From Escherichia coli O157:H7 (lineage in GTDB: Bacteria > Pseudomonadota > Gammaproteobacteria > Enterobacterales > Enterobacteriaceae): DNA of 64,000 nt. The DNA is taken from NCBI RefSeq assembly GCF_013167455.1, contig NZ_CP038328.1; one strand, written 5' to 3'. Below are positions 1-63,046 of this stretch, in pieces (positions within the stretch are counted from its first letter, which is position 1; every line of letters starts with the position of its first letter). Position numbers and translations under genes: made by a program. Below the pieces are notes generated by a model. That model was not told the origin of the DNA and ran no database searches. It worked only from the letters and a program-made list of their open reading frames with translations.

Positions 1-126
1 CATAATCTGGTATTCCGAAGGAATGCGATCGTCTTCCACCAGATCTCCGGTATAAATACTTTCTCTTATCCACTCCACCACTTGTTGATAGAGCGGTATT
101 TGTGACGACTTACTTAATGATTTCAT
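1..126 (-). CDS. GntR-family HTH transcriptional regulator, N-terminal 42 codons only (gene runs off the window start)
   Basis: Reverse complement of 1..126 begins with ATG (124..126) and translates MKSLSKSSQIPLYQQVVEWIRESIYTGDLVEDDRIPSEYQIM, a typical GntR-type winged-helix N-terminus. Absent from the ORF track because no stop lies inside the window. Confidence 0.4.
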   Translation of the reverse strand, partial: MKSLSKSSQIPLYQQVVEWIRESIYTGDLVEDDRIPSEYQIM

Positions 127-324
127 GGCGCGCACCTGAACATTTACAGTTGTCTATGGACAATCATGGACAACTTCAAGCGTATAGTAGGTGAACGGGA
201 GAAAAAGAGGATCGAAGCGTCTCACATTTTGAGGGACCAAATCGTGATCAAAAAAATGTGACGTGAGTCGATATTTGTCAGAAGTTTACTGCGCCGTAAG
301 GAAATAACGGCGCGTTGGTAGGTG

Positions 325-3128
<2,804 letters not shown>

Positions 3129-3132
<4 letters not shown>

Positions 3133-4073
3133 GCGTGCGCTCCTTCATGACGACGAATGCGTGGGTCCAGTGCGGCGTTGAGCAAATCGACAATCAAATT
3201 ACAGACCACAAAAACCACCACCATCATCAGCGTAAAGCACTGGATCACCGGATAGTCACGGTTAAAAATCGCCGACACCGCATAGCGCCCGACGCCGGGC
3301 CAGGTAAAGATGTTTTCGATAATCATCGTCCCGCCAATCAGTTCGCCAATGTGCATCCCCACGGCGGTGATCATCGGCAGCGAGGCATTGCGCAGAATAT
3401 GACGACGCTCGGTCTGTTTGTCATTCAGGCCGCGTAGCCGCGCCCAGGTGACGTGACGCTGACCGGCGACGTCCAGCATACTGGCGCGCAGCAGCCGTGC
3501 GTTAATCGCCAGCGACATAAAGGCAATGGAAACCGCAGGCAAAATGATGTGCTGCCAGCCGCCGTAGCCCATCGCGGGTAGCCATTGCAGATACACCGAA
3601 AACGCCATCACCAGTAAAAATGCCAGCCAGAAGTTGGGCATCGACACGCCGAGAAACGCGATGAAACGTACGGCGAAATCCGGCAGACGGTCACGATGGC
3701 GCGCCGCCCAGATACCGAGCGGTACGGAAGTGAGCAGAATTAATACCAGCGCCGCACCCGCCAGTTCCAGCGTGGCGGGCAGGAAGTTCAGCATATCGTC
3801 CAGCACCGGGCGCTGCGTGGCAAATGAGATGCCGAAATCAAGATGCAGCGCCTTCCACAACCAGGTGCCGTACTGCACATACAGCGGCTGATCCAGTCCC
3901 AGCATGGTGCGGGTAGAGGCCAGCATCTCCGGCGTCGGCGGCAGGTTAGACAGACGCAAATAATCGAGCGCCGGGTCGCCGGTACCGAGGCGCAGCATCA
4001 GAAAAATGATCACCGAGGCGGCGAGCACCATCGGGATCAGCAGCAGAAAGCGGCGTAATACGTAACGCAACAT
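3129..4073 (-). CDS. nikB: Nickel ABC transporter permease NikB
   Basis: 314-aa DppB/OppB-type permease; tightly packed in the operon. Confidence 0.93.
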
Positions 4074-5647
4074 TAAGGTTTCACCGGTTTAATCTGTTCG
4101 AACGGAATTTCGGTGGCGATCGGCGCGTAGGGGATGTTACCCAGCTCCGGTTTTGATACCACCATCATTGAGATGTAACTGATAGGCAGATAAACCGCCT
4201 CGTCATGCAGACGGGTCAGAATGTCGCGATACAGTGCCTGACGTTGTGCTTCGTCATGGGTCGCCAGCACTTCGCCGATCTCTTTATCAATCAGCGGCTT
4301 GTCGGCTAATCCTTGCTGTGCCTGGAAGTCAGCGTGCGACGGTACGCGCATTGAACTCAGGAAGGCGTGTGGATCGTATGGCGCGCCCCAGGTGCGGTGG
4401 AAAATCATGCCAAAACGACCGTCGCGCTGACGCGCATAGATACTGCTCTCTTCTTCGCCAATCAGCGAGACATCTGCGCCAATCTGGCGCATATCAGCCT
4501 GAATGATTTCCGCCATCGATTTGCTTAACGCATCGGTGCCGATGAACGAAAGTTCAATGTGCAGCGGCTGACCATTTTTCTCGCGGATGTCTTTGCCCGC
4601 AGGCAGCGTCCAACCGGCTTTTTCCAGCAACGCTTTCGCTTTCTGCGGATCGTACTGGCGCGGTTTCAGGCCGAGGTTGGCGTAGGGCACAGAAGGGGCA
4701 AACAGGGTGTCGGCGACCTGCTGGGTGCCATACAACGCGTTATCAATCAGCGATTTTTTGTTTACCGCGTAATTAAGAGCTTCACGTACTGCCAGCTCAT
4801 TGGTGGGGGCTTTGGCGGTATTAAGCGCCAGCATCACGGTTTCGATCGGCTGTGACAGTTGGGTATGGTAAGCCGGGTTCTGGCTAAAGCGGGCGAAGGT
4901 ATCGAGCGGTAATAACCCTTCGTTTCCGTACAGCAGGTCGATATCGCCAGTTTCAAACGCCACCGCGCGGGTAGTCGGGTCTGGGATGACGTTAAAAGTG
5001 ATCTTCTTAATTGCCGGCTTTTCGCCCCAGTAGTTTTCGTTACGGACGAAGACATCGTACTGATTCAGTTTCGATTCCTGCAAAACCCACGGTCCGGTGC
5101 CAATCGGCGCTTTAATCCCGTTCATGGTTTCATGGTTTTTAAACTGCGAGGGGGCGATAAAGCGGAAAGGGCGCGGCAGGGCCAGTTCTTGCAGGAAAGG
5201 ATAGTAGGCGCTTTTCAGGGTGATTTGCAGCTCTGTTTTACTGAGTGCTTTAACATCAACAATCTGGTTTGCCAGCTCCAGCCAGGCGTGACGTTGACGG
5301 TTATCGAGCACTGCGCGGAAGTTTTCTGCCGCCGCCTCTGCATCAAACGGTTCGCCGTTAGAGAATTTCACGTCATCACGCAGGGTGAAGGTCCAGATTT
5401 TACCATCTTCTGAATGAGTCCAGCTTTTTGCCAGCCACGGGATCACCGAACCGTCTGCCTGATATTTCACCAATGGTTCATAAACCATGCTCTGGGCGAA
5501 CATCTGGTTAGGCGTGTAAAGGTGCGGGTTTAGTGGCCCGACATTCACCGGCCAGGCGGTGGTGATTTCATCTGGTGCAGCGGCATGGACGATAAAAGAC
5601 GCACAAGCCAGCAGCGCAAATAGAGTGCGGCGGAGTGTGGAGAGCAT
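4073..5647 (-). CDS. nikA: Periplasmic nickel-binding protein NikA
   Basis: 524 aa with N-terminal signal peptide; family-5 solute-binding protein; first gene of the nik operon. Confidence 0.93.
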
Positions 5648-5685
5648 GGTAACCCCAATGGATTAAAATAGATGGCGGAAATAAG

Positions 5686-5713
5686 TATGACGATTTTAAG
5701 TATTCGTCATACT
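5686..5713 (-). promoter_or_regulatory. NikR operator in the nikA promoter (GTATGA-N16-TCATAC)
   Basis: Perfect dyad GTATGA(5686..5691)-16 nt-TCATAC(5708..5713), about 40 bp upstream of the nikA start; matches the established NikR operator architecture. Confidence 0.8.
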
Positions 5714-5757
5714 GATTACCTGTTCTGGATCAATAGATGGGCAGTCGGGTGGGCGGA

Positions 5758-6345
5758 TCAGTTAACTGAATCGATCCATTGCACACTGTCGGCGGTGAGC
5801 GTAAAGGGAGTAGGGGTGCAGATCGCCAGGCTTAAATTTTCTAGCTGACAATGGCTGACTGACAGCGAGGAGTGATAGGTGCTGTCTACGCTGACGATTT
5901 GCCAGGCGCTGCCACCACGCTGTTTAACGATGGCTTCTTTGCGCGTCCAGATGCGCCAGAACATTTCCAGTTGCTGATCAGGATGCACGGCGTCCATCTC
6001 AGCATGTTCCCCGAGGCTGAACACGGCGTTCGCCAGCCAGCGCCAGTTGGCGCGCGGGCGAATCACTTCGATATCGCAGCCGACTTCGCCTTCATCACTC
6101 AACAGCAGGGCGATATCGTCACCGCTATGGCTTAAGTTGAACCATAGCGGCGTTTCCGGCGCAAATGCAGGTTTGCCTTGTTCGCCATAGATGATCTCCG
6201 GTAGCGGGGAAAGCGTGTGCGAAAGCAATGCACGCCCCGCCAGCCAGCGTTCGCGTCGTGGACCTTGCGGTGCTTGCTCGCGTAAACCCGGTGGCAGTGG
6301 AGCTGCGCTTAAGGTCGAAACTTTCCCCAGAACTATCCGATACAT
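5758..6345 (-). CDS. acpT: 4'-phosphopantetheinyl transferase AcpT (195 aa)
   Basis: Translation from the internal ATG at 6345 (MYRIVLGKV...) gives 195 aa matching AcpT. The longer ORF-track start at 6465 would overlap the upstream KS gene and is rejected. Confidence 0.88.
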   Translation of the reverse strand: MYRIVLGKVSTLSAAPLPPGLREQAPQGPRRERWLAGRALLSHTLSPLPEIIYGEQGKPAFAPETPLWFNLSHSGDDIALLLSDEGEVGCDIEVIRPRANWRWLANAVFSLGEHAEMDAVHPDQQLEMFWRIWTRKEAIVKQRGGSAWQIVSVDSTYHSSLSVSHCQLENLSLAICTPTPFTLTADSVQWIDSVN

Positions 6346-6346
6346 A

Positions 6347-7576
6347 TCAGGGCCAACGTTTAATGATGATGGATGTATTAATGCCGCCAAAGGCAAAGTT
6401 GTTACTCTGCAAAAACTCACAATCAACCTTGCGGGCTTCATGCATGATGTAATCCAGCGCGCCACAATTCGGGTCTGGTTTATTCAGGTTTAGCGTAGGC
6501 GCAAACCAACCTTCGCGCATCATTTGCAGACTCATCCAGGCTTCGAGCGCGCCACAGGCACCAAGCGTATGACCAAAATAACTTTTCAGCGAGGAGAGCG
6601 GCACATTATCACCGTAAATGGTTGCTGTCGCCAGACTTTCTGCCATATCACCGCGATCGGTCGCCGTACCATGCGCTGAAATATAGCCGATATCTTGTGC
6701 GCTTAACCCGGCGATTTTCAGCGATTGCTCCATACAATACTGCATGGTTTCGCGCTGCGGCTGGGTAATATGTGCCGCGTCGCAGTTAGTCGCAAAGCCG
6801 ACGATTTCACCGTAAATGGTCGCGCCGCGCGCTTTGGCGTGCTCCAGTTCTTCGAGAATGAGCGTACCTGCGCCTTCACCAATCACCAGCCCGTCGCGGT
6901 TTTCATCGAACGGTGAAGGTGTGGTTTTCGGCGCATCATTGTGCTGGCTGGTGGCGAAAAGCGTATCAAATACCGCTGCTTCTGAAGGACATAACTCTTC
7001 GGCACCACCAGCAACCATCACCGTTTGATAACCGTGGCGAATGGCTTCCCACGCATAACCGATTGCCTGGCTGCCGGAAGTACAGGCGCTGGAGGTTGGG
7101 ATCACCCGCCCGCGCAGGCCGAAAAAGAGGCCAGTATTAACGGCGGTGGTGTGCGGCATCATCTGCACATAGGTGGTGCCAGTGATGTTATTGGTGTGCT
7201 TTTCCGTCAGCATGGTGGCGAACTCGCTTACCGGGCCGGTACTGCCGGTCGATGAACCGTACGCAATGCCCGTTTCGCCGCTGGTTAATATCGGATCGCC
7301 AATCAACCCTGCCTGCTCTAACGCCAGCTCGCTGGCACGGGTCGACATTTGCGACACGCGGCCCATCGCACGGATACGCTTGCGGGTGTAGTGCTCCGGT
7401 AGCGTGAAATCATCAACAGGCGCGCCAAGCAGGGTGTGCAGCCCATCGTAGACCTGCCACTCCGGCATTTTGCGCACCGCATTTTCATATGCCAGTAAGC
7501 GTGCAGAAACGTCCTGCCAGTTTTCACCAAAGGCAGTCACGCCGCCCATTCCTGTAATCACTACGCGACGTGTCAT
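6347..7576 (-). CDS. apeR: Beta-ketoacyl-ACP synthase (FabB/FabF-like elongating KS) of the APE-type cluster
   Basis: 409 aa; active-site SSACTSG Cys plus ISAHGTAT and FGHTLGA His motifs. Ape letter assigned from position in a colinear 17-gene cluster, tentative. Confidence 0.8.
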   Translation of the reverse strand: MTRRVVITGMGGVTAFGENWQDVSARLLAYENAVRKMPEWQVYDGLHTLLGAPVDDFTLPEHYTRKRIRAMGRVSQMSTRASELALEQAGLIGDPILTSGETGIAYGSSTGSTGPVSEFATMLTEKHTNNITGTTYVQMMPHTTAVNTGLFFGLRGRVIPTSSACTSGSQAIGYAWEAIRHGYQTVMVAGGAEELCPSEAAVFDTLFATSQHNDAPKTTPSPFDENRDGLVIGEGAGTLILEELEHAKARGATIYGEIVGFATNCDAAHITQPQRETMQYCMEQSLKIAGLSAQDIGYISAHGTATDRGDMAESLATATIYGDNVPLSSLKSYFGHTLGACGALEAWMSLQMMREGWFAPTLNLNKPDPNCGALDYIMHEARKVDCEFLQSNNFAFGGINTSIIIKRWP

Positions 7577-8304
7577 AACATCCCTCCGTTGATGGAAATA
7601 ACCTGGCGGGTGACGTAACCCGCAATATCAGACATTAAATAGCTGGCAAGCCCGGCAACTTCTTCCGCCTGGCCCATGCGTTTCATGGGGATCATCGACA
7701 TTGCCTCTTTCAGGGCGCTCTCTTCCATTTCGATCATCCCGGTATCAATAAGCCCCGGCGCGATGCAGTTGACGGTGATTTTGCGCTTCGCGAGTTCGAT
7801 AGCCAGCGCTTTTGTTGCGCCGATAATTCCGGCTTTGGCAGCGCTGTAATTCACCTGGCCGCGATTGCCCATTACGCCGGAAACCGAGGATAGCGTGATG
7901 ATGCGCCCACCCTGGCGTGCGCCGATCATCGGCATAATGCACGGCTGAATGACGTTGTAGAAACTGTCGAGGTTGGTGTGGATCACCGCATCCCAGTCGT
8001 CATCGCTTAAAGCCGGAAAAGCGGCATCGCGGGCGATCCCGGCGTTACTGACCACGCCGTACCAGGCACCGTGTTGCGCGATTTCGTGCTCCAGCACTTC
8101 CCGACACTGTTCGCGGTTTGCGACGTCGAAACTGAGCAAACGCCCGTTACCCCCATTGGCGACAATGGCATTCAGCGTTTCCTGAGCGCCTGTGGCGTCA
8201 CGGTGATAGTGAACGCCAATGTTAAAGCCGTCTGCCGCCAGTTGGCAGGCGATGGCGCGACCAATGCCTTTGCTGGCACCAGTAACCAGAACTGAACGAC
8301 TCAT
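7573..8304 (-). CDS. apeQ: 3-oxoacyl-ACP reductase (FabG-like SDR ketoreductase)
   Basis: 243 aa; N-terminal TGASKGIG Rossmann motif and SDR catalytic YSAAK; 4-bp overlap with the downstream KS. Confidence 0.8.
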   Translation of the reverse strand: MSRSVLVTGASKGIGRAIACQLAADGFNIGVHYHRDATGAQETLNAIVANGGNGRLLSFDVANREQCREVLEHEIAQHGAWYGVVSNAGIARDAAFPALSDDDWDAVIHTNLDSFYNVIQPCIMPMIGARQGGRIITLSSVSGVMGNRGQVNYSAAKAGIIGATKALAIELAKRKITVNCIAPGLIDTGMIEMEESALKEAMSMIPMKRMGQAEEVAGLASYLMSDIAGYVTRQVISINGGML

Positions 8305-8768
8305 CAGGACGCTCCTTGTTGAAACAGGGTGGTAAGTTCTTCCGCGGTCGGCTGGAAGGTGTTAATGCGGCCCGTCGCCTCGCCGTCGTTGATGCTGCAC
8401 TCAAAACTGCCGAAGCGATCGTCTTGCATCAGCAGTTTGACGGTAATGGTCAGTGTCTGGCCTGCGGGCAGAATGCCAGTGGTGCAAAGCAATTCACGCG
8501 CGCCCAGTATCATCCCTAACTCAATACTGTTTTTGCCCTGCTGGTGGCGATGCCAGCCAGACCAGACGCCGACGGTTTGCGCCATCAGTTCAAGGGTAAA
8601 CCAGCCGGGGAGATTGCCGTCCGGGTCGAGAAACGGTGCCAGTACGCCACTGGGCGAAACCGTCACGCGGCACACCGCGCTGTCATCGCTGACGCTCACC
8701 ACGTCTTCCAGCAGTAACATGGGCGCGTCGTGGGGCAGATAAGCGCCGGGGGATAAATAGTGGCTCAC
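8304..8768 (-). CDS. apeP: Hotdog-fold 3-hydroxyacyl-ACP dehydratase (FabA/FabZ-like)
   Basis: 154-aa hotdog-sized ORF inside the PKS-like cluster; overlaps neighbours by 1 to 4 bp. Confidence 0.7.
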   Translation of the reverse strand: MSHYLSPGAYLPHDAPMLLLEDVVSVSDDSAVCRVTVSPSGVLAPFLDPDGNLPGWFTLELMAQTVGVWSGWHRHQQGKNSIELGMILGARELLCTTGILPAGQTLTITVKLLMQDDRFGSFECSINDGEATGRINTFQPTAEELTTLFQQGAS

Positions 8769-53644: not shown

Positions 53645-53734
53645 GCGATCAGGAAGACCCTCGCGGAGAACCTGAAAGCACGACATTGCTCACATTGCTT
53701 CCAGTATTACTTAGCCAGCCGGGTGCTGGCTTTT
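53645..53734 (+). ncRNA. ryhB: RyhB small RNA (Fur-repressed, Hfq-dependent iron-sparing sRNA)
   Basis: 90-nt sequence GCGATCAGGAAGACCCTCGCGGAGAACCTGAAAGCACGACATTGCTCACATTGCTTCCAGTATTACTTAGCCAGCCGGGTGCTGGCTTTT matches RyhB, including the terminal hairpin AGCCAGC/GCTGGCT plus U-run; lies between yhhY and yhhX. Confidence 0.9.
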
Positions 53735-53856
53735 TTTTTGATCTTTCGTTCTCAATTTATCCTCGGGAAGTGCTTGTGTTCGTTATGCGCACTCCAGTAG
53801 GAACCACGTCCGCTTTGCGCTAAGGTGTAAATAACCACCTTAAAAAGGACGAAATC

Positions 53857-55935: not shown

Positions 55936-56931
55936 ATGAAAAAGAAAAGACCCGTACTTCAGGATGTGGCTGACCGTGTAGGCGTGACCAAAATGACGGT
56001 CAGCCGTTTTTTACGCAACCCGGAGCAGGTTTCCGTCGCTCTACGCGGCAAGATTGCCGCGGCTCTTGATGAACTGGGCTATATTCCCAATCGTGCGCCC
56101 GATATCCTCTCTAACGCCACCAGCCGGGCGATTGGCGTCCTGTTACCTTCTCTCACCAACCAGGTTTTCGCGGAAGTATTACGCGGAATCGAAAGCGTCA
56201 CCGACGCGCACGGTTATCAGACCATGCTGGCCCACTACGGTTATAAACCGGAAATGGAGCAAGAACGTCTCGAATCAATGCTCTCATGGAATATCGACGG
56301 ACTGATCCTCACCGAACGTACCCACACGCCGCGCACCTTAAAGATGATTGAAGTGGCGGGGATCCCGGTGGTGGAGTTGATGGACAGCCAGTCGCCGTGT
56401 CTCGATATCGCCGTCGGTTTTGATAACTTTGAAGCGGCACGCCAGATGACCACAGCCATTATTGCTCGCGGGCATCGCCACATTGCCTATCTCGGCGCAC
56501 GTCTCGACGAACGTACTATCATCAAACAGAAGGGATACGAACAGGCGATGCTGGATGCAGGCCTGGTGCCATATAGCGTGATGGTTGAGCAATCTTCTTC
56601 TTACTCTTCCGGTATTGAACTGATTCGCCAGGCACGGCGGGAATATCCGCAGCTGGATGGCGTGTTCTGTACTAATGATGATCTGGCGGTCGGCGCGGCG
56701 TTTGAATGTCAGCGTCTGGGGTTAAAAGTTCCTGACGATATGGCGATTGCCGGTTTCCACGGTCATGACATTGGTCAGGTGATGGAGCCACGACTTGCGA
56801 GCGTGCTGACGCCGCGTGAGCGGATGGGCAGTATTGGCGCTGAACGCCTGCTGGCGCGTATTCGTGGCGAATCTGTGACACCGAAAATGTTAGATTTAGG
56901 TTTCACCTTGTCACCGGGCGGATCTATTTAA
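55936..56931 (+). CDS. gntR: Gluconate repressor GntR (LacI family)
   Basis: 331 aa; N-terminal HTH (LQDVADRVGVTKMTVSRFL) plus periplasmic-binding-protein-like domain. Confidence 0.93.
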   Translation: MKKKRPVLQDVADRVGVTKMTVSRFLRNPEQVSVALRGKIAAALDELGYIPNRAPDILSNATSRAIGVLLPSLTNQVFAEVLRGIESVTDAHGYQTMLAHYGYKPEMEQERLESMLSWNIDGLILTERTHTPRTLKMIEVAGIPVVELMDSQSPCLDIAVGFDNFEAARQMTTAIIARGHRHIAYLGARLDERTIIKQKGYEQAMLDAGLVPYSVMVEQSSSYSSGIELIRQARREYPQLDGVFCTNDDLAVGAAFECQRLGLKVPDDMAIAGFHGHDIGQVMEPRLASVLTPRERMGSIGAERLLARIRGESVTPKMLDLGFTLSPGGSI

Positions 56932-57600: not shown

Positions 57601-58941
57601 GTGACTACATTAACGCTTGTTTTAACAGCAGTAGGGTCTGTTTTACTGCTGCTGTTTTTAGTCATGAAGGCGCGTATGCACGCTTTCCTGGCTTTAATGG
57701 TGGTGTCCATGGGGGCTGGCCTTTTTTCCGGTATGCCGCTCGATAAAATCGCAGCGACGATGGAAAAAGGGATGGGAGGCACCCTCGGCTTCCTGGCGGT
57801 GGTTGTCGCCCTGGGAGCTATGTTTGGCAAGATCTTACATGAAACCGGCGCAGTCGATCAGATTGCCGTCAAAATGCTTAAATCCTTCGGTCACAGCCGC
57901 GCGCATTATGCCATCGGCCTTGCGGGGCTGGTCTGTGCGCTACCGCTGTTCTTTGAAGTGGCGATTGTTCTGCTGATTAGCGTTGCTTTCTCAATGGCGC
58001 GCCACACCGGTACGAACCTGGTGAAGCTGGTAATCCCATTATTCGCAGGCGTGGCGGCCGCGGCGGCGTTCCTGGTGCCAGGGCCAGCGCCAATGCTGCT
58101 GGCATCGCAGATGAACGCCGATTTTGGCTGGATGATCCTGATTGGCCTGTGTGCGGCAATTCCGGGAATGATTATTGCCGGGCCGCTGTGGGGTAACTTC
58201 ATCAGCCGTTACGTTGAGCTGCATATTCCTGACGACATCAGCGAACCGCATCTCGGCGAAGGCAAAATGCCATCCTTCGGATTCAGCCTGTCGCTGATCC
58301 TGCTGCCGCTGGTGCTGGTAGGGCTGAAAACCATTGCCGCGCGTTTTGTGCCGGAAGGCTCTACCGCTTACGAATGGTTCGAGTTTATTGGTCATCCGTT
58401 TACCGCGATTCTGGTTGCTTGTCTGGTAGCGATTTATGGCCTGGCAATGCGTCAGGGCATGCCAAAAGACAAAGTGATGGAGATTTGCGGTCACGCGCTG
58501 CAACCGGCGGGGATCATTCTGCTGGTGATTGGTGCGGGCGGCGTGTTCAAACAGGTGCTGGTTGACTCTGGCGTAGGTCCGGCACTGGGCGAAGCGTTAA
58601 CCGGCATGGGCCTGCCGATTGCCATCACCTGCTTCGTGCTGGCCGCTGCAGTGCGCATCATTCAGGGTTCTGCAACCGTTGCCTGTTTAACGGCGGTGGG
58701 ACTGGTGATGCCGGTTATTGAACAACTGAACTACTCCGGTGCGCAAATGGCGGCGCTGTCGATTTGTATCGCCGGTGGTTCGATTGTTGTCAGCCACGTT
58801 AACGACGCTGGTTTCTGGTTGTTCGGTAAATTTACCGGCGCGACCGAAGCCGAAACGCTGAAAACCTGGACCATGATGGAAACCATCCTCGGCACTGTCG
58901 GTGCCATCGTTGGGATGATTGCGTTCCAGCTGTTGAGTTAA
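57601..58941 (+). CDS. gntU: Low-affinity gluconate transporter GntU (GntP family)
   Basis: 446-aa polytopic GntP-family permease with a GTG start. Confidence 0.9.
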   Translation: MTTLTLVLTAVGSVLLLLFLVMKARMHAFLALMVVSMGAGLFSGMPLDKIAATMEKGMGGTLGFLAVVVALGAMFGKILHETGAVDQIAVKMLKSFGHSRAHYAIGLAGLVCALPLFFEVAIVLLISVAFSMARHTGTNLVKLVIPLFAGVAAAAAFLVPGPAPMLLASQMNADFGWMILIGLCAAIPGMIIAGPLWGNFISRYVELHIPDDISEPHLGEGKMPSFGFSLSLILLPLVLVGLKTIAARFVPEGSTAYEWFEFIGHPFTAILVACLVAIYGLAMRQGMPKDKVMEICGHALQPAGIILLVIGAGGVFKQVLVDSGVGPALGEALTGMGLPIAITCFVLAAAVRIIQGSATVACLTAVGLVMPVIEQLNYSGAQMAALSICIAGGSIVVSHVNDAGFWLFGKFTGATEAETLKTWTMMETILGTVGAIVGMIAFQLLS

Positions 58942-58952
58942 TTACTGCGACA

Positions 58953-58995
58953 AATTACTGCGAGCTTGCTCGCAGTAATTCATTTCTCTTTTCTC
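58953..58995 (+). terminator. gntU terminator hairpin (12-bp perfect stem)
   Basis: AATTACTGCGAG-CTTG-CTCGCAGTAATT followed by a pyrimidine-rich tract. Confidence 0.6.
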
Positions 58996-59080
58996 CTCTC
59001 TTCATCTTTTTGATCTCTCTCGCAAATTTACCTGCAAATAATCCGTTCTAATCACTGCCTAAAGATCGCAGGAGATAAAG

Positions 59081-61205
59081 ATGGAAAAGCACGCAGCTGA
59101 ATTGCTTTTACAGCGGATGTTAGGAAATACCACCGCTACTTTCAGGGAAGGGCAATGGGAAGCCATAGACGCGGTGGTGAACCAACGGCGAAAACTGCTG
59201 GTTGTCCAACGCACTGGCTGGGGGAAAAGTGCTGTGTACTTCATCGCCAGTAAAATCTTCCGCGATCGCGGCGCTGGCCCGACAATTATCATCTCTCCTT
59301 TGCTTGCCCTGATGCGTAACCAGGTTGCCGCCGCTGAACGGTTAGGTATTACGGCTGAAACGTTGAATTCTACAAACAGAGAAGAATGGCAGCGCATTAG
59401 CGATAAGTTGCTGCAAGGTGAGGTCGATTGCTTGCTGGTTTCCCCGGAACGTTTGGCAAACCAGGACTTTATCGAAACGGTTTTATATCCTATAGCCGAT
59501 CATATTGGCTTGCTTGTGGTCGACGAGGCGCACTGCATCTCTGATTGGGGCCACGATTTTCGCCCGGATTACCGACGTATATTAGATATTTTGCGCAACT
59601 ACCTGCGAATACCCCTGTTCTGGGTACAACCGCGACAGCGAATAACCGTGTCGTTGAGGATATCCGTCAGCAATTGGGTGACATTGTGATTCAGCGTGGA
59701 ACGCTGGCTCGCGAAAGTTTGGCGCTTGATGCCTTAGTCTTAGGTGAACACTCATCCCGTCTGGCATGGTTAGCAACGGTTATCCCTCAGTTTTCCAAAT
59801 CGGGAATTGTTTATACCCTGACTACTCGCGATGCCGAACTTGTCGCCGAGTGGTTAAGGAAAAATGGTATCAGTGCATTTGCTTACTACAGCGGCGTGAC
59901 TTGTGAAGGCGCGGAAGATTCTAATACTGCCAGGGAATATCTGGAGCAGGCGTTGCTGGCAAATAAAATTAAAGTGCTGGTTGCGACAACGGCGCTGGGA
60001 ATGGGCTTTGACAAACCGGATTTGGGGTTTGTTATTCATTACCAGATGCCAGGTTCGATAGTTGGTTACTACTAACAGGTGGGGCGTGCCGGTCGCGGTA
60101 TCGATTCTGCTGTTGGCATACTGCTTTGCGGCAGTGAAGACCGTGCTATTCATAAATTCTTCCGTGAAAGCGCCTTTCCTGCGGAGGCGCAAATTCATGA
60201 AATACTCAACGTACTTAGCGTGAATGACGGTCTTACCTTACGAGGCATTGAACAACGGACGAATCTCCGTTATGGGCAAATAGAAAAAGCACTGAAATTA
60301 TTGGTAGCTGAAAATCCATCGCCTGTGGTGTATACCGAGAAATTATGGCGCAGAACAATTGTCAGTTTTTCTCCTGACCATGAACGAATTAACCATTTGA
60401 TGAATCAGAGAAAAAGTGAGCTGGCAGACGTTGAAAGCTATATCACGACCAAGGAGTGCAAAATGCAATTTCTGCGCCGCGCACTCGATGAGCCAGGTGC
60501 CGAACATTGTGGTAAATGTAGCAGTTGTCTTCAGCATCCGTTGTTGTCGCCCGACATTGATAGCGGCTTACTCCATGCGGCAAACTTATTTATTAAACAC
60601 GCTGACCTGTCATTAAATCTCAATAAACAGGTGGCAGCTGGGGCTTTTACGCAATACGGATTTAAAGGGAACTTGCCTGCGAGTTTACAAGGATCTACGG
60701 GGCGAATCCTTTCTCGTTGGGGATATTCCGGGTGGGGAAAGCAGGTAGCACAGGAGAAAAAAACGGGGCGATTCAGTGATGAACTGGTGGAGGCATGTGC
60801 GGAAATGGTTCGCCAACGCTGGAATCCGCATCCTGAACCAACCTGGGTATGCTGCGTTCCTTCATTAAAGCACCTCGACCTGGTTCCTGATTTTGAAAGC
60901 ACCTCGACCTGGTTCCTGATTTTGCCCGGCGACTGGCGGCGAAACTTGGCTTACCTTTTATTGATGCCATTGAAAAAGTCGTGGACAATCCACCGCAGAA
61001 AATGCAGCAAAACCGTTTCCACCAGTGTCAAAATCTCGACGGGGCGTTTGTGATTACCCCTCCTTTGATGCCTGGTCCGGCGTTGCTGGTTGACGATATC
61101 GTGGATTCTGCATGGACGCTGACAGTTCTAACAGCACTGTTACGCCAGGCAGGTTGCCCGACGGTTTATCCTCTTGCCCTTGCTTCTACCTCGGTAAAAA
61201 ATTGA
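59081..61205 (+). pseudogene. Disrupted RecQ-family DNA helicase fused to a C-terminal ComF-like phosphoribosyltransferase domain
   Basis: Three ORF-track fragments belong to one gene: Walker A GWGKS and RecQ motifs [19 protein letters not shown] and GYY*QVGRAGRG, a Cys-rich RQC-like region, and a PRTase motif ALLVDDIVDSAWT at the C-terminus. Lesions: frameshift near 59597..59612, in-frame TAA at 60073..60075, 29-bp tandem duplication at 60896..60924. Reconstructed ancestral product about 698 aa. Confidence 0.75.
60867..60924 (+). repeat. Perfect 29-bp tandem duplication inside the RecQ-like gene
   Basis: AAAGCACCTCGACCTGGTTCCTGATTTTG occurs twice back to back (60867..60895 and 60896..60924); 29 is not a multiple of 3, so the reading frame shifts. 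Confidence 0.95.
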
Positions 61206-62407
61206 TGAATCTTTCAGCCAATGCACAAGCAACTCTCCTGCTAACCAGCGATTTTTCTCGCGCGGCGGCGAGTAAGTATAAACCTCTTAGTAATAGTGAA
61301 TGGGGGAAGTTTGCATTATGGCTGAAGCACCAACGTATCAGTCCCGCCGAGCTTCTGGTGCCGCAACCGCAAGAGAAACTTACAGGCTGGAGCGATCCGC
61401 GTATTTCTCAGGAGCGTATTCTTGGCTTGCTGGCGCGTGGTCATAGTCTGGCGTTGGCGGTAGATAAGTGGCAACGCGCCGGTTTATGGATCTTAACCCG
61501 CGGAGATGCTGATTATCCCGTTCGCTTGAAAAACCGATTGCGAACGGATGCACCTCCCGTTTTATTTGGCTGCGGGAATAAAGCATTACTGCAAGCGGAA
61601 GGTATGGCGATTGTTGGCTCGCGAGATGCTCCGACTGACGATTTGCGCTATACCCAACAACTGGCCGCGAAACTGGCCCAACAGGGGATTTGCGTTATCT
61701 CTGGTGGTGCGCGAGGTATTGATGAATGTGCAATGGCGTCGGCACTGGAGGCCGGGGGAACTGCCGTTGGCGTATTAGCTGATAGCTTGTTAAAAACGAG
61801 TACGTTAGTGAAATGGCGTGAAGGGCTTATAGCAGGCAACCTGGTGTTGATTTCGCCGTTTTACCCAGAGGTACGTTTCACCGTCGGCAATGCGATGGCG
61901 CGAAATAAATATATTTATTGCCTTGCTGAAAGCGCAATGGTTGTACGTGCGGGAATGACCGGTGGAACGATAACCGGGGCGATGGAGGCATTAAAACATC
62001 AGTGGCTGCCTGTGCAGGTTAAACCAAATCAGGATATGCAATCAGCCAATTCACGATTAGTAGAAAATGGGGCGTCATGGAGTGCTGAACAGGCTGAGAA
62101 TGTGACGATCAGACTGCCAGACGTTCCTGGGCTGATGTATGACAGAGCACTCCGTAACGCTCAACCAGAACTGTTTTCGCTGCATGAAGATGACGCAAAT
62201 TACGCAGTAATGCCCGCGTATACGCCTGTCGATTTTTATCAACTCTTTGTGGCGGAACTGGCGATCCTTGCAAAGGAATCGATAAGTATTGAAAGGCTGG
62301 CGTCTTGTACTGGTTTAACCATCGAACAAATTAGTGTGTGGCTGAACCGCGCAGAAGAAGAGGGAAGGGTTATCCGATTGGGCGAAGGTCATTATCAGTT
62401 CAGGTAA
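61205..62407 (+). CDS. DprA/Smf-family (SLOG Rossmann) protein, a paralogue of the DNA-processing protein DprA
   Basis: 400 aa from the ATG at 61205, which shares a base with the TGA stop of the upstream helicase frame; Rossmann motifs AIVGSRDAPTDD and VISGGARGIDE; C-terminal winged-helix-like tail. Confidence 0.75.
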   Translation: MNLSANAQATLLLTSDFSRAAASKYKPLSNSEWGKFALWLKHQRISPAELLVPQPQEKLTGWSDPRISQERILGLLARGHSLALAVDKWQRAGLWILTRGDADYPVRLKNRLRTDAPPVLFGCGNKALLQAEGMAIVGSRDAPTDDLRYTQQLAAKLAQQGICVISGGARGIDECAMASALEAGGTAVGVLADSLLKTSTLVKWREGLIAGNLVLISPFYPEVRFTVGNAMARNKYIYCLAESAMVVRAGMTGGTITGAMEALKHQWLPVQVKPNQDMQSANSRLVENGASWSAEQAENVTIRLPDVPGLMYDRALRNAQPELFSLHEDDANYAVMPAYTPVDFYQLFVAELAILAKESISIERLASCTGLTIEQISVWLNRAEEEGRVIRLGEGHYQFR

Positions 62408-62410
62408 TAA

Positions 62411-62446
62411 AACAGGTGCCGCGTCTGGTTGTGTGCAGCACCTGTT
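62411..62446. terminator. Hairpin between convergent DprA-like gene and yhgN
   Basis: Perfect 9-bp stem AACAGGTGC/GCACCTGTT with an 18-nt loop between the two stop codons. Confidence 0.45.
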
Positions 62447-62452
62447 TGAACC

Positions 62453-63046
62453 TTACCCCTTCATCCACATTCGAATGCCGTCGAGGAACATCTGGGTTGC
62501 CATCATCACCAGAATCAATCCCATCAGGCGTTCAAGTGCGTTCACCCCTTTCTCGCCCAGCAGACGTAAAAATAGCGAAGACTGTAGCAGGATGACAAAG
62601 GTGCCGCCCCAGGCCAGCAGCAGAGCAATCACCAGATGTCCCATCTGATTCGGGTACTGATGAGACAACAACATCAGCGTGGCGAGAATAGTTGGCCCGG
62701 CGACCAGCGGAATTGCCAGCGGCACGATAAATGGCTCTTCACCTGCCGGAAGCCCGCTGCTATTTCCTGAAGCGCTGGGGAAAATCATCTTAATGGCAAT
62801 TAGAAACAGAATGATGCCGCCAGAAATGGAGACGGTTTCTGCTCGCAGGCTGAGAAATGCCAGAATTTTCTCACCCGCAAACAGGAACACCAGCATCACC
62901 AGGAGAGCAATAAGCAACTCTCGCACCATGATTGCCCGCCGTCTTTTCGGTTCAGTATGTTTCAGTACGGACATGAAAATAGGTAGGTTTCCGAGCGGAT
63001 CCATAATCAGGATCAATAAAACTGCTGCAGAAATGATTTCATTCAT
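62453..63046 (-). CDS. yhgN: MarC-family inner-membrane protein YhgN
   Basis: 197-aa polytopic membrane protein matching YhgN; divergent from asd. Confidence 0.88.
   Translation of the reverse strand: MNEIISAAVLLILIMDPLGNLPIFMSVLKHTEPKRRRAIMVRELLIALLVMLVFLFAGEKILAFLSLRAETVSISGGIILFLIAIKMIFPSASGNSSGLPAGEEPFIVPLAIPLVAGPTILATLMLLSHQYPNQMGHLVIALLLAWGGTFVILLQSSLFLRLLGEKGVNALERLMGLILVMMATQMFLDGIRMWMKG

Follow-up and report, generated by a model that had tools for sequence, protein, structure and literature searches.

The window, that is, the whole 64-kb stretch of DNA analyzed here, carries a two-gene cassette between gntU, which ends at 58941, and yhgN on the minus strand, which ends at 62453 (Table 1). 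In E. coli K-12, the gntU–yhgN gap measures 56 bp. Alignment with K-12 showed that identity is lost directly past the gntU stop codon and regained at the yhgN stop codon, in agreement with an earlier reading made from the sequence alone (hereafter the sequence-only reading), which had described a block with no K-12 counterpart at this junction. The GC content of the cassette is 49%, compared to 53% for the window. The same reading placed the block between the gntU terminator and yhgN. The location between the two genes is correct, but the terminator-like hairpin lies inside the 58942–62452 block. A second hairpin, in the gap where rqlI and yhgN converge, is likely a bidirectional terminator. 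A sigma-70 promoter scan of positions 58850–62550 returned no site and the rqlHI promoter was not located, while an Rfam scan of the whole window gave no match in or near the cassette.

Table 1. Features of the gntU–yhgN junction (positions in the window)
Feature	Position	Strand	Description and evidence
rqlHI/PsyrTA cassette	58942..62452	.	3,511 bp; allele-specific DNA in place of the 56-bp K-12 gntU–yhgN intergenic region
Terminator-like hairpin 3' of gntU, then T-rich tail	58953..58980	+	Terminator scan; −16.6 kcal/mol, z = −4.8; inside cassette-specific DNA
rqlH/psyrT pseudogene (toxin)	59081..61205	+	RecQ-like SF2 helicase, linker, zinc module, PRTase; ORF fragments tile the PADLOC PsyrT profile
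Helicase motif I, GWGKS (K49)	59216..59230	+	Numbering agrees with the K49 mutated in PMC3378886 and PMC4670107
Lesion 1	59595..59596	+	One C lost (CGCCAA→CGCAA), frameshift at codon 172; alignment with CFT073, S40 and XJ34
Lesion 2	60073..60075	+	CAA→TAA nonsense (C→T at 60073), codon 332, motif VI (YYQQVGRAGR); alignment
Tetracysteine RecQ-type zinc-binding module (C460, C477, C480, C483)	60457..60528	+	Pfam RecQ_Zn_bind; TIGR01389 positions 351–396
Lesion 3	60867..60924	+	Perfect 29-bp tandem duplication, 60867–60895 / 60896–60924, frameshift at codon 596 within the PRTase domain; repeat search, 100% identity
PRPP-binding loop DDIVD (D663; residues 662–666)	61092..61106	+	Now only in the 74-codon out-of-frame remnant ORF 60981–61205
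rqlI/psyrA (antitoxin)	61205..62407	+	Intact 400-codon DprA/SLOG-like gene; PADLOC PsyrA, Pfam; ATG overlaps the rqlH TGA
Hairpin between convergent rqlI and yhgN	62410..62447	.	−18.9 kcal/mol on + (z = −2.9); −21.0 kcal/mol on − (z = −4.8)

The first gene, rqlH (psyrT), is broken into four ORFs that overlap or adjoin one another (59081–59689, 59545–60075, 60079–61053 and 60981–61205), which cover positions 5–174, 161–326, 330–611 and 615–687 of the 689 positions of the PADLOC PsyrT profile. The intact RqlH orthologue of CFT073 matches this profile with 1063 bits over positions 5–687. In RefSeq, this O157:H7 gene is already marked as a pseudogene, under the description 'RecQ family ATP-dependent DNA helicase, frameshifted; internal stop'. 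Once the three lesions described below are repaired, rqlH encodes a 698-aa protein, which is equal to the CFT073 protein at 677 and to the S40 protein at 683 of 699 positions (the aligned stop position being counted). The sequence-only reading had reconstructed a protein of about this size with a RecQ helicase core and, at the C-terminus, a phosphoribosyltransferase (PRTase) domain, and both domains were recovered. The helicase core is matched by Pfam DEAD (5.9e-25) and Helicase_C (4.2e-13) and by the PDB structure of RecQ 1oyw (5.8e-53). Motifs I, II and VI (GWGKS, DEAH and QQVGRAGR) are found in RqlH, and the copy in the window has its reading frame broken at codons 172 and 332. The protein is not RecQ proper: TIGR01389 gives the two helicase fragments 143 and 93.5 bits, where its cut-off is 640, and Pfam gave no HRDC match. 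What had been described as an RQC-like Cys cluster is indeed a cysteine cluster (C460-x16-C477-x2-C480-x2-C483), but it corresponds to the RecQ zinc-binding module (Pfam RecQ_Zn_bind, residues 443–484) and not to the RQC winged helix. A family-specific linker separates it from the ATPase core.

Assignment of the C-terminal domain required several approaches. The PF00156 profile matches 31 of 34 RqlH homologues, with an E-value of just 0.0015–0.009 for the single RqlH sequence. Since sequence searches of the PDB, with single sequence and profile, gave, with marginal E-values, only the PRPP-loop motif that all PRTases and PRPP synthetases have in common, the fold was confirmed through structure prediction and Foldseek. 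All Foldseek matches of the AlphaFold model of this domain (pLDDT 86) are PRTases, and the model supports a type I PRTase. Its proposed ComF type is less clear. Helicobacter pylori ComF (7p0h) has the top query coverage among the fold matches (TMq 0.44), yet it ranks 8th among generic PRTases, and the GntX model NF008616 matches the domain weakly (E = 0.01, 15.3 bits, cut-off 304). PGAP names a truncated rqlH copy 'ComF family protein'.

The second gene, rqlI (psyrA), is intact. Its start overlaps the rqlH stop (TGATG at 61203–61207), the A of ATG being shared with TGA, and the full-length DprA-like gene in an operon with rqlH that the sequence-only reading had described is borne out by our searches. 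RqlI matches the PADLOC PsyrA profile with about 671 bits (residues 1–400 on profile positions 1–397 of 398) and Pfam DNA_processg_A at 2.6e-50, and it belongs to SLOG cluster 4. It also matches the ShosA HMM (2.7e-27) and the ShosA structure 9vzo. DprA (Smf) proper was rejected, as RqlI scores 101.9 with TIGR00732 (cut-off 191.15) and 79.9 with NF008007 (cut-off 495), which makes it a paralogue. The gene is intact in all 18 E. coli alleles with annotation that we inspected.

Alignment of rqlH to the intact alleles of CFT073 and S40 revealed exactly three lesions, as had been counted from the sequence alone, and these were mapped against four other alleles (CFT073, S40, XJ34 and RM19259). Lesion 3 is absent from all four. 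We then counted each lesion in 5,426 complete E. coli genomes. The exact 61-mer of lesion 1 is present in 308 genomes, O55:H7 DEC5D included, and that of lesion 2 in 306, while the 50-mer spanning the junction of lesion 3 is found in 291; among the 25 matches listed for the latter, all serotyped ones are O157. O55:H7 DEC5D and RM19259 share the first two lesions and lack the third. Single-base indels are a frequent assembly artefact, and one could suppose that the lesions arose in sequencing or assembly, or that they are bypassed by recoding, and that the helicase gene is functional. We consider the chance of this to be negligible: the same lesions, nested by lineage, recur in 291–308 complete genomes that were assembled independently, and neither a TAA nonsense codon nor a 29-bp duplication can be bypassed by slippage. 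Because the lesions recur in this way, assembly error is excluded and they are lineage markers of O55:H7/O157:H7.

The frameshift at codon 172 and the nonsense codon 332 destroy the helicase, and the later 29-bp duplication splits the PRTase core from the PRPP loop. No toxic RqlH product can be made from the allele in the window and, as a consequence, the module can serve neither as a toxin–antitoxin pair nor for defence. The locus belongs to PsyrTA by descent, not by function.

Comparison of the gntU–yhgN junction across the same 5,426 genomes, as suggested by the sequence-only reading, showed that the site is strictly two-state: 1,650 genomes (about 30%) carry the cassette, always at this one chromosomal site, and the other 3,776 have the K-12 junction. 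Intact alleles were readily found, since all 11 of the spread-sampled carriers outside O157 have both genes intact, and the intact rqlHI orthologue of CFT073 (ExPEC) occupies the same gntU–yhgN site. Independent damage to rqlH was also observed: in XJ34 the gene is frameshifted by +G, and in strain 98218 it is interrupted by ISEcp1; an insertion element is reported to split rqlH in Shigella sonnei 53G (PMC4670107). The term 'inserted', applied earlier to this module, is not upheld, as the site has two alleles and the cassette shows none of the hallmarks of a mobile genomic island (integrase or transposase, flanking repeats, tRNA target, variable cargo). The repeat search found no direct or inverted repeats flanking the cassette and, as possible insertion scars beyond the 29-bp duplication, just short chance-level matches. 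Plasmids contain only distant RqlH homologues, at most 60% identical (one of them, at 60%, on an E. coli plasmid), which rules out recent plasmid carriage of this allele. A plasmid-borne RqlH homologue is present in NZ_OX030731.1. A phage origin of the cassette was rejected as well, because phage genomes contain no RqlI homologue save weak DprA-like matches in three records.

According to these data, the block is very probably the published RqlH–RqlI (PsyrTA) toxin–antitoxin/anti-phage cassette, present here as an O55:H7/O157:H7 allele with a dead toxin gene. The novelty implied by the sequence-only reading is not retained. Earlier publications already cover the system itself, the domains of its proteins, its behaviour as a toxin–antitoxin pair, the fact that K-12 lacks it and its echo of ComF and DprA. 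The helicase family with zinc and ComF-like domains was defined in 2012 by Ordonez et al., who noted that it lacks HRDC and that it is missing from K-12 and present in other E. coli (PMC3378886). The E. coli rqlH–rqlI locus was characterized genetically in 2015 by Russell & Mulvey, in a paper that does not mention O157:H7 or pseudogenes and numbers RqlI 1–400 (PMC4670107). The K49, D148 and D663 residue numbering of our protein is identical to that of the F11 protein studied there. In that work, RqlH of ExPEC expressed alone is genotoxic, causing SOS induction, filamentation and mutagenesis; its toxicity requires the PRTase domain, ends with D663A, and is neutralized by RqlI, which is made from the same operon and binds RqlH (F11 allele; PMC4670107). 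PsyrTA, which is RqlHI, figures among the anti-phage systems of Millman et al. (2022, bioRxiv 10.1101/2022.05.11.491447), who reported phage protection by a PsyrTA operon and found that ΔpsyrA is not transformable. With the native PsyrTA of E. coli NILS69, protection could not be detected for the phages tested, and its expression in K-12 made growth slower. One survey found PsyrTA enriched in phylogroup E2. The family models used here are PADLOC PDLC03928/PDLC03927. Our search of the available literature for a dedicated study of the PsyrTA mechanism found none, its results being crowded by the psychiatric term 'PSYRATS'. Sberro (2013) is a further source for the family.

The sequence-only reading had favored a nucleic-acid conflict module over housekeeping repair, and this agrees with a toxin–antitoxin/anti-phage system (PMC4670107; PADLOC). 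It had also drawn a parallel with natural competence. A module serving competence-type uptake or processing of ssDNA, as a fused analogue of ComFA/ComFC and DprA with no conflict function, would fit the ComF-like fold match, the low-scoring match to GntX, which is the ComF homologue of E. coli, and the DprA-like second gene, and the analogy is raised in both PMC4670107 and PMC3378886. We nevertheless find it very improbable. Russell & Mulvey detected zero transformation events in their ExPEC isolates, and a protein that is genotoxic by itself and neutralized by its partner behaves as a toxin–antitoxin (PMC4670107). Furthermore, RqlI falls far under the cut-offs of the DprA equivalogs, and the cassette is accessory, being carried by 30% of genomes and dispensable in O157:H7.

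In the intact state, as shown for the orthologous ExPEC allele (PMC4670107), the RecQ-like helicase RqlH, with its genotoxic, PRPP-dependent C-terminal PRTase, is bound and restrained by RqlI. By analogy with ShosTA, phage infection might release RqlH, a labile antitoxin being lost or the antitoxin being titrated by phage ssDNA, and the freed PRTase may then damage DNA or nucleotide metabolism, so that infection is aborted. This defence step is borrowed from ShosTA and from the homologue that Millman et al. examined. An inactive toxin next to an intact antitoxin would be the asymmetry predicted by toxin–antitoxin logic: decay of the toxin first is expected because losing rqlI first is costly and losing rqlH first costs nothing. 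From its sequence, rqlI appears to survive as an orphan antitoxin gene beside the dead toxin gene, and by a rough estimate the lineage may not be old enough for rqlI, now neutral, to have been lost to decay.

To account for the intact rqlI, one can also imagine that selection keeps the orphan RqlI of O55:H7/O157:H7 for a job of its own, either as an anti-addiction factor against PsyrT/ShosT-type toxins of plasmids or phages or as a DprA-like mediator of ssDNA and RecA. Each of the inspected alleles with a dead toxin (O157:H7, O55:H7, RM19259, XJ34 and strain 98218) retains an intact rqlI, the plasmid-borne RqlH homologue mentioned above could provide a target, and the related ShosA binds ssDNA and RecA. 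Russell & Mulvey found rare RqlI-only genomes and proposed RqlH-independent roles for RqlI (PMC4670107). We judge this explanation unlikely. An intact rqlI has no statistical power, because three lesions in 2,097 bp lead one to expect about 1.7 in 1,203 bp, with a Poisson probability of zero of about 0.18. The rqlI genes of O157 and XJ34 differ by 4 substitutions only (2 synonymous and 2 non-synonymous), too few for dN/dS to be informative on selection. Toxin-first decay accounts for the asymmetry without any added function.

The decay of this allele matters for automated defence censuses. The PsyrT and PsyrA models still match O157:H7 strongly, and such censuses will score a dead system as PsyrTA-positive. 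If the orphan RqlI were selected, those reporting PsyrTA enrichment in phylogroup E2, which we take to be the O157:H7 cluster, would count a dead system. The nested lesions offer a clean natural case of toxin-first decay, two of them being common to O55:H7 and the third found only in O157-type genomes. On the other hand, the decayed O157:H7 copy is of no help on the PRTase chemistry of RqlH or on its trigger, and it has little discovery value.

Compared with known systems, the locus is closest to RqlH–RqlI of ExPEC F11 (PMC4670107), with which it shares the gene pair and its order, the overlapping stop and start, the 698-aa and 400-aa products and the K49, D148 and DIVD663 residues; it differs from it by the three inactivating rqlH lesions of the window. 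With the PsyrTA family it shares a helicase–PRTase toxin and a DprA-like antitoxin, both matching the family HMMs end to end, but its toxin ORF is broken and it is a remnant, not a working member. ShosTA (PMC11961720, PMC12961424) likewise pairs a PRPP-dependent PRTase toxin with a DprA-like antitoxin and produces DNA damage and filamentation. Unlike RqlH, ShosT has no helicase, and it is absent from the top Foldseek matches of the RqlH C-terminal domain; neutralization of ShosT by ShosA is of type IV, with no binding between the two, whereas RqlI does bind RqlH. The RqlH of Mycobacterium smegmatis (PMC3378886) has the same RecQ-like ATPase, linker of about 90 aa, tetracysteine zinc domain and ComF-like PRTase as that of E. 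coli, and is the only one for which 3'→5' translocase/helicase activity was proven biochemically. Its gene is not accompanied by an rqlI, which is also the case in nearly all Gram-positive bacteria. Finally, ComFA/ComFC/DprA, E. coli RecQ, DprA (Smf) and GntX share folds with RqlHI (SF2 helicase, zinc finger and type I PRTase, DprA Rossmann/SLOG). They are paralogues only, as RqlHI scores far under the equivalog cut-offs, has no HRDC and has no detected role in transformation.

The block between gntU and yhgN is the RqlHI module, also named PsyrTA, and is already known as to family, locus and phenotype. Identity to K-12 ends directly past the gntU stop codon and returns at the yhgN stop codon; the allele boundaries coincide exactly with these two codons. 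The gntU–yhgN spacer measures 3,511 bp (58942–62452) in the window vs 56 bp in K-12, confirming the sequence-only reading that the block has no K-12 counterpart. The window is of the E. coli O157:H7 type, and the 3.5-kb block is 100% identical in many O157:H7 chromosomes. The cassette has no flanking repeats, and neither an integrase nor a tRNA was found. In the whole window, the RyhB small RNA gene (53674–53738, 83 bits) was the sole Rfam match above gathering score.

Features of the gntU–yhgN region and lesions in rqlH (window positions; last column, genomes with the diagnostic k-mer among 5,426 complete E. coli genomes)
Feature	Position	Strand	Description	Genomes
gntR	55936–56931		first in local gene order, then gntK	
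gntU	57601–58941		after gntK, then the block	
Terminator-like hairpin	58953–58980		after gntU, inside allele-specific DNA	
rqlH	59081–61205		gene 1 (psyrT), toxin	
Lesion 1	after 59595		codon 172, one C lost (1-bp deletion)	308
Lesion 2	60073		codon 332, C→T giving TAA (nonsense codon), helicase motif VI	306
Lesion 3	60867–60924		codon 596, perfect 29-bp tandem duplication	291
rqlI	61205–62407		gene 2 (psyrA), antitoxin	
Terminator-like hairpin	62410–62447		between convergent rqlI and yhgN, inside allele-specific DNA	
yhgN	62453–63046	minus	after the block, then asd	

The cassette was present in 1,650 of 5,426 genomes, chromosomal in every case, and the K-12-type junction in 3,776. Since these counts add exactly to 5,426, the site is strictly two-state and not a variable-cargo hotspot. 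This survey, proposed by the sequence-only reading, recovered both the empty site (the K-12 junction) and intact alleles: both genes are annotated as intact in CFT073, S40 and 11 of 11 spread-sampled carriers outside the O157 group. At the CFT073 locus, the annotation treats yhhY (N-acetyltransferase, 225–713) as a pseudogene that carries an internal stop.

CFT073 carries at this site an undamaged 2,097-nt gene encoding 698 aa, with a DprA-like gene after it. The N-terminal part of the 698-aa protein is an SF2 helicase core of the RecQ-like kind, recognised by Pfam DEAD and Helicase_C; residues 5–348 match the E. coli RecQ structure 1oyw (5.8e-53). The predicted Cys cluster proved to be a RecQ-type zinc module with the cysteine spacing of RecQ itself (C460-x16-C477-x2-C480-x2-C483). 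The C-terminal domain is a type I phosphoribosyltransferase (PRTase). Although its single-sequence Pfam match is weak (E = 0.009), this assignment has further support: PF00156 is matched by 31 of 34 homologues at E ≤ 0.001, and the AlphaFold model of residues 454–698 (mean pLDDT 86) retrieved only PRTases with Foldseek, the top query-normalised TM-score being that of H. pylori ComF (7p0h; 0.44 over 239 columns). The domain calls made from the sequence are supported. With PADLOC, the intact protein matched PsyrT with 1063 bits (profile positions 5–687 of 689). The PADLOC "DpdF" model PDLC02869, of 74 positions, matches end to end the out-of-frame rqlH remnant ORF 60981–61205 (186 bits), and PDLC02866 (255 positions) matches RqlH residues 462–694. 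Both models appear to have been built from C-terminal pieces of RqlH and may give rise to mis-annotation.

The second protein matches Pfam DNA_processg_A (2.6e-50) and SLOG cluster 4, as well as solved DprA structures and ShosA. Because its scores with the DprA equivalog models are far below cut-offs, RqlI is a DprA paralogue. RefSeq/PGAP places its start at 61112, 31 codons upstream of 61205, giving 431 aa and a 94-nt overlap with rqlH; this extension (61112–61204) runs through the PRPP-loop codons of gene 1 in a different frame. The true start codon, ATG at 61205, has one base in common with the TGA of gene 1, as first read from the sequence. This 400-aa start is preferred since residues 1–400 align to positions 1–397 of 398 of the PADLOC PsyrA profile (671 bits) and RqlI is numbered 1–400 by Russell & Mulvey 2015 (PMC4670107).

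Alignment with CFT073, S40, XJ34 and RM19259 bore out the three lesions in the helicase gene next to an intact DprA-like gene (Table), and the 698-aa frame was regained once all three were repaired. RefSeq already flags rqlH as a pseudogene. The sequence-only reading had raised assembly error as a source of the lesions, which is ruled out by their recurrence among the genomes counted. As O55:H7 DEC5D and RM19259 carry the first two lesions without the duplication, the latter is the latest event. The PRPP loop (DDIVD662–666) is downstream of the duplication and is left only in a 74-codon remnant ORF.

Other alleles have lost rqlH as well. XJ34, the non-O157 allele nearest to this one (99.6% identity), is free of all three O157 lesions; its own +G frameshift, at about window position 60718, is an independent inactivation. 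In strain 98218 (locus positions 1–8586), an ISEcp1–blaCTX-M-15 unit is inserted in rqlH, and S. sonnei 53G carries an insertion element in this gene (PMC4670107). Beside the 98218 unit lie IS26, Tn3 remnants, OXA-1 and aac(6')-Ib-cr, and the insertion leaves a C-terminal fragment, named "ComF family protein" by PGAP, with an intact rqlI. Across alleles, the dN/dS of rqlH is about 0.05–0.12, so intact rqlH is under purifying selection. Annotation of rqlI was inspected in 18 E. coli alleles and showed an intact gene in each. Its retention may be due to selection or to chance, since zero lesions in rqlI at the rqlH lesion density has, by our own calculation, a probability of about 0.18, and the nearest rqlI alleles differ by four substitutions only.

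The O157 and CFT073 alleles diverge unevenly (58942–60140): several stretches of 200 bp in the leader and the helicase part of rqlH exceed 10% differing sites (19–33 differences within 58942–59241, 59342–59641 and 59842–60241), vs about 1% in rqlI (1–3 per 200 bp). For rqlH the dS is 0.21, compared with 0.03 in rqlI and 0.12 in gntU. The pattern points to a recombination mosaic inside the helicase gene. A full-length RqlH homologue (60% identity) was also observed on an E. coli plasmid of 100 kb (NZ_OX030731.1, 37352–39478); it represents a second PsyrT lineage in E. coli, and a mobile one.

Ordonez et al. 2012 (PMC3378886) defined RqlH, missing from K-12 and present in other E. coli, as a RecQ-like 3'→5' helicase that also contains a linker, a tetracysteine zinc domain and a ComF-like PRTase domain. 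The rqlH–rqlI operon was studied in ExPEC strain F11 (PMC4670107): RqlH expressed alone caused SOS, filamentation and mutagenesis, and RqlI bound and neutralised it. Toxicity needs the PRTase domain (abolished by D663A), but this domain alone is insufficient. K49, D148 and D663 of that study occupy identical positions in the present E. coli protein.

In the window, no reading frame encodes one protein that joins the helicase to a whole PRTase domain, and the PRPP loop is cut off from the remainder of that domain. Given these split frames and the published need for D663 together with other RqlH parts (PMC4670107), the toxin is probably dead; the module would have no toxin–antitoxin or abortive-infection activity, leaving rqlI as a putative orphan antitoxin. 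Since loss of rqlI is harmful as long as rqlH is active (PMC4670107), toxin-first decay may be the sole cost-free way to lose the pair. All four rqlH fragments and PsyrA score strongly with PADLOC, so surveys of defence systems based on HMMs will go on scoring PsyrTA in O157:H7, a cluster which we take to be phylogroup E2. One survey reports PsyrTA as enriched in phylogroup E2.

The sequence-only reading of a conflict module rather than housekeeping repair was right in kind, though not new. Russell & Mulvey (PMC4670107) discussed both the toxin–antitoxin and the ComF/DprA competence analogies, no transformation events being detectable, and PsyrTA has been listed among the toxin–antitoxin systems protecting against phage (Millman et al. 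2022, bioRxiv 10.1101/2022.05.11.491447). In the sister system ShosTA, the ShosT toxin depends on PRPP and disturbs both purine metabolism and DNA. The DprA-like antitoxin is unstable and binds RecA as well as ssDNA; the proposed trigger is host shut-off or phage ssDNA (PMC11961720, PMC12961424).
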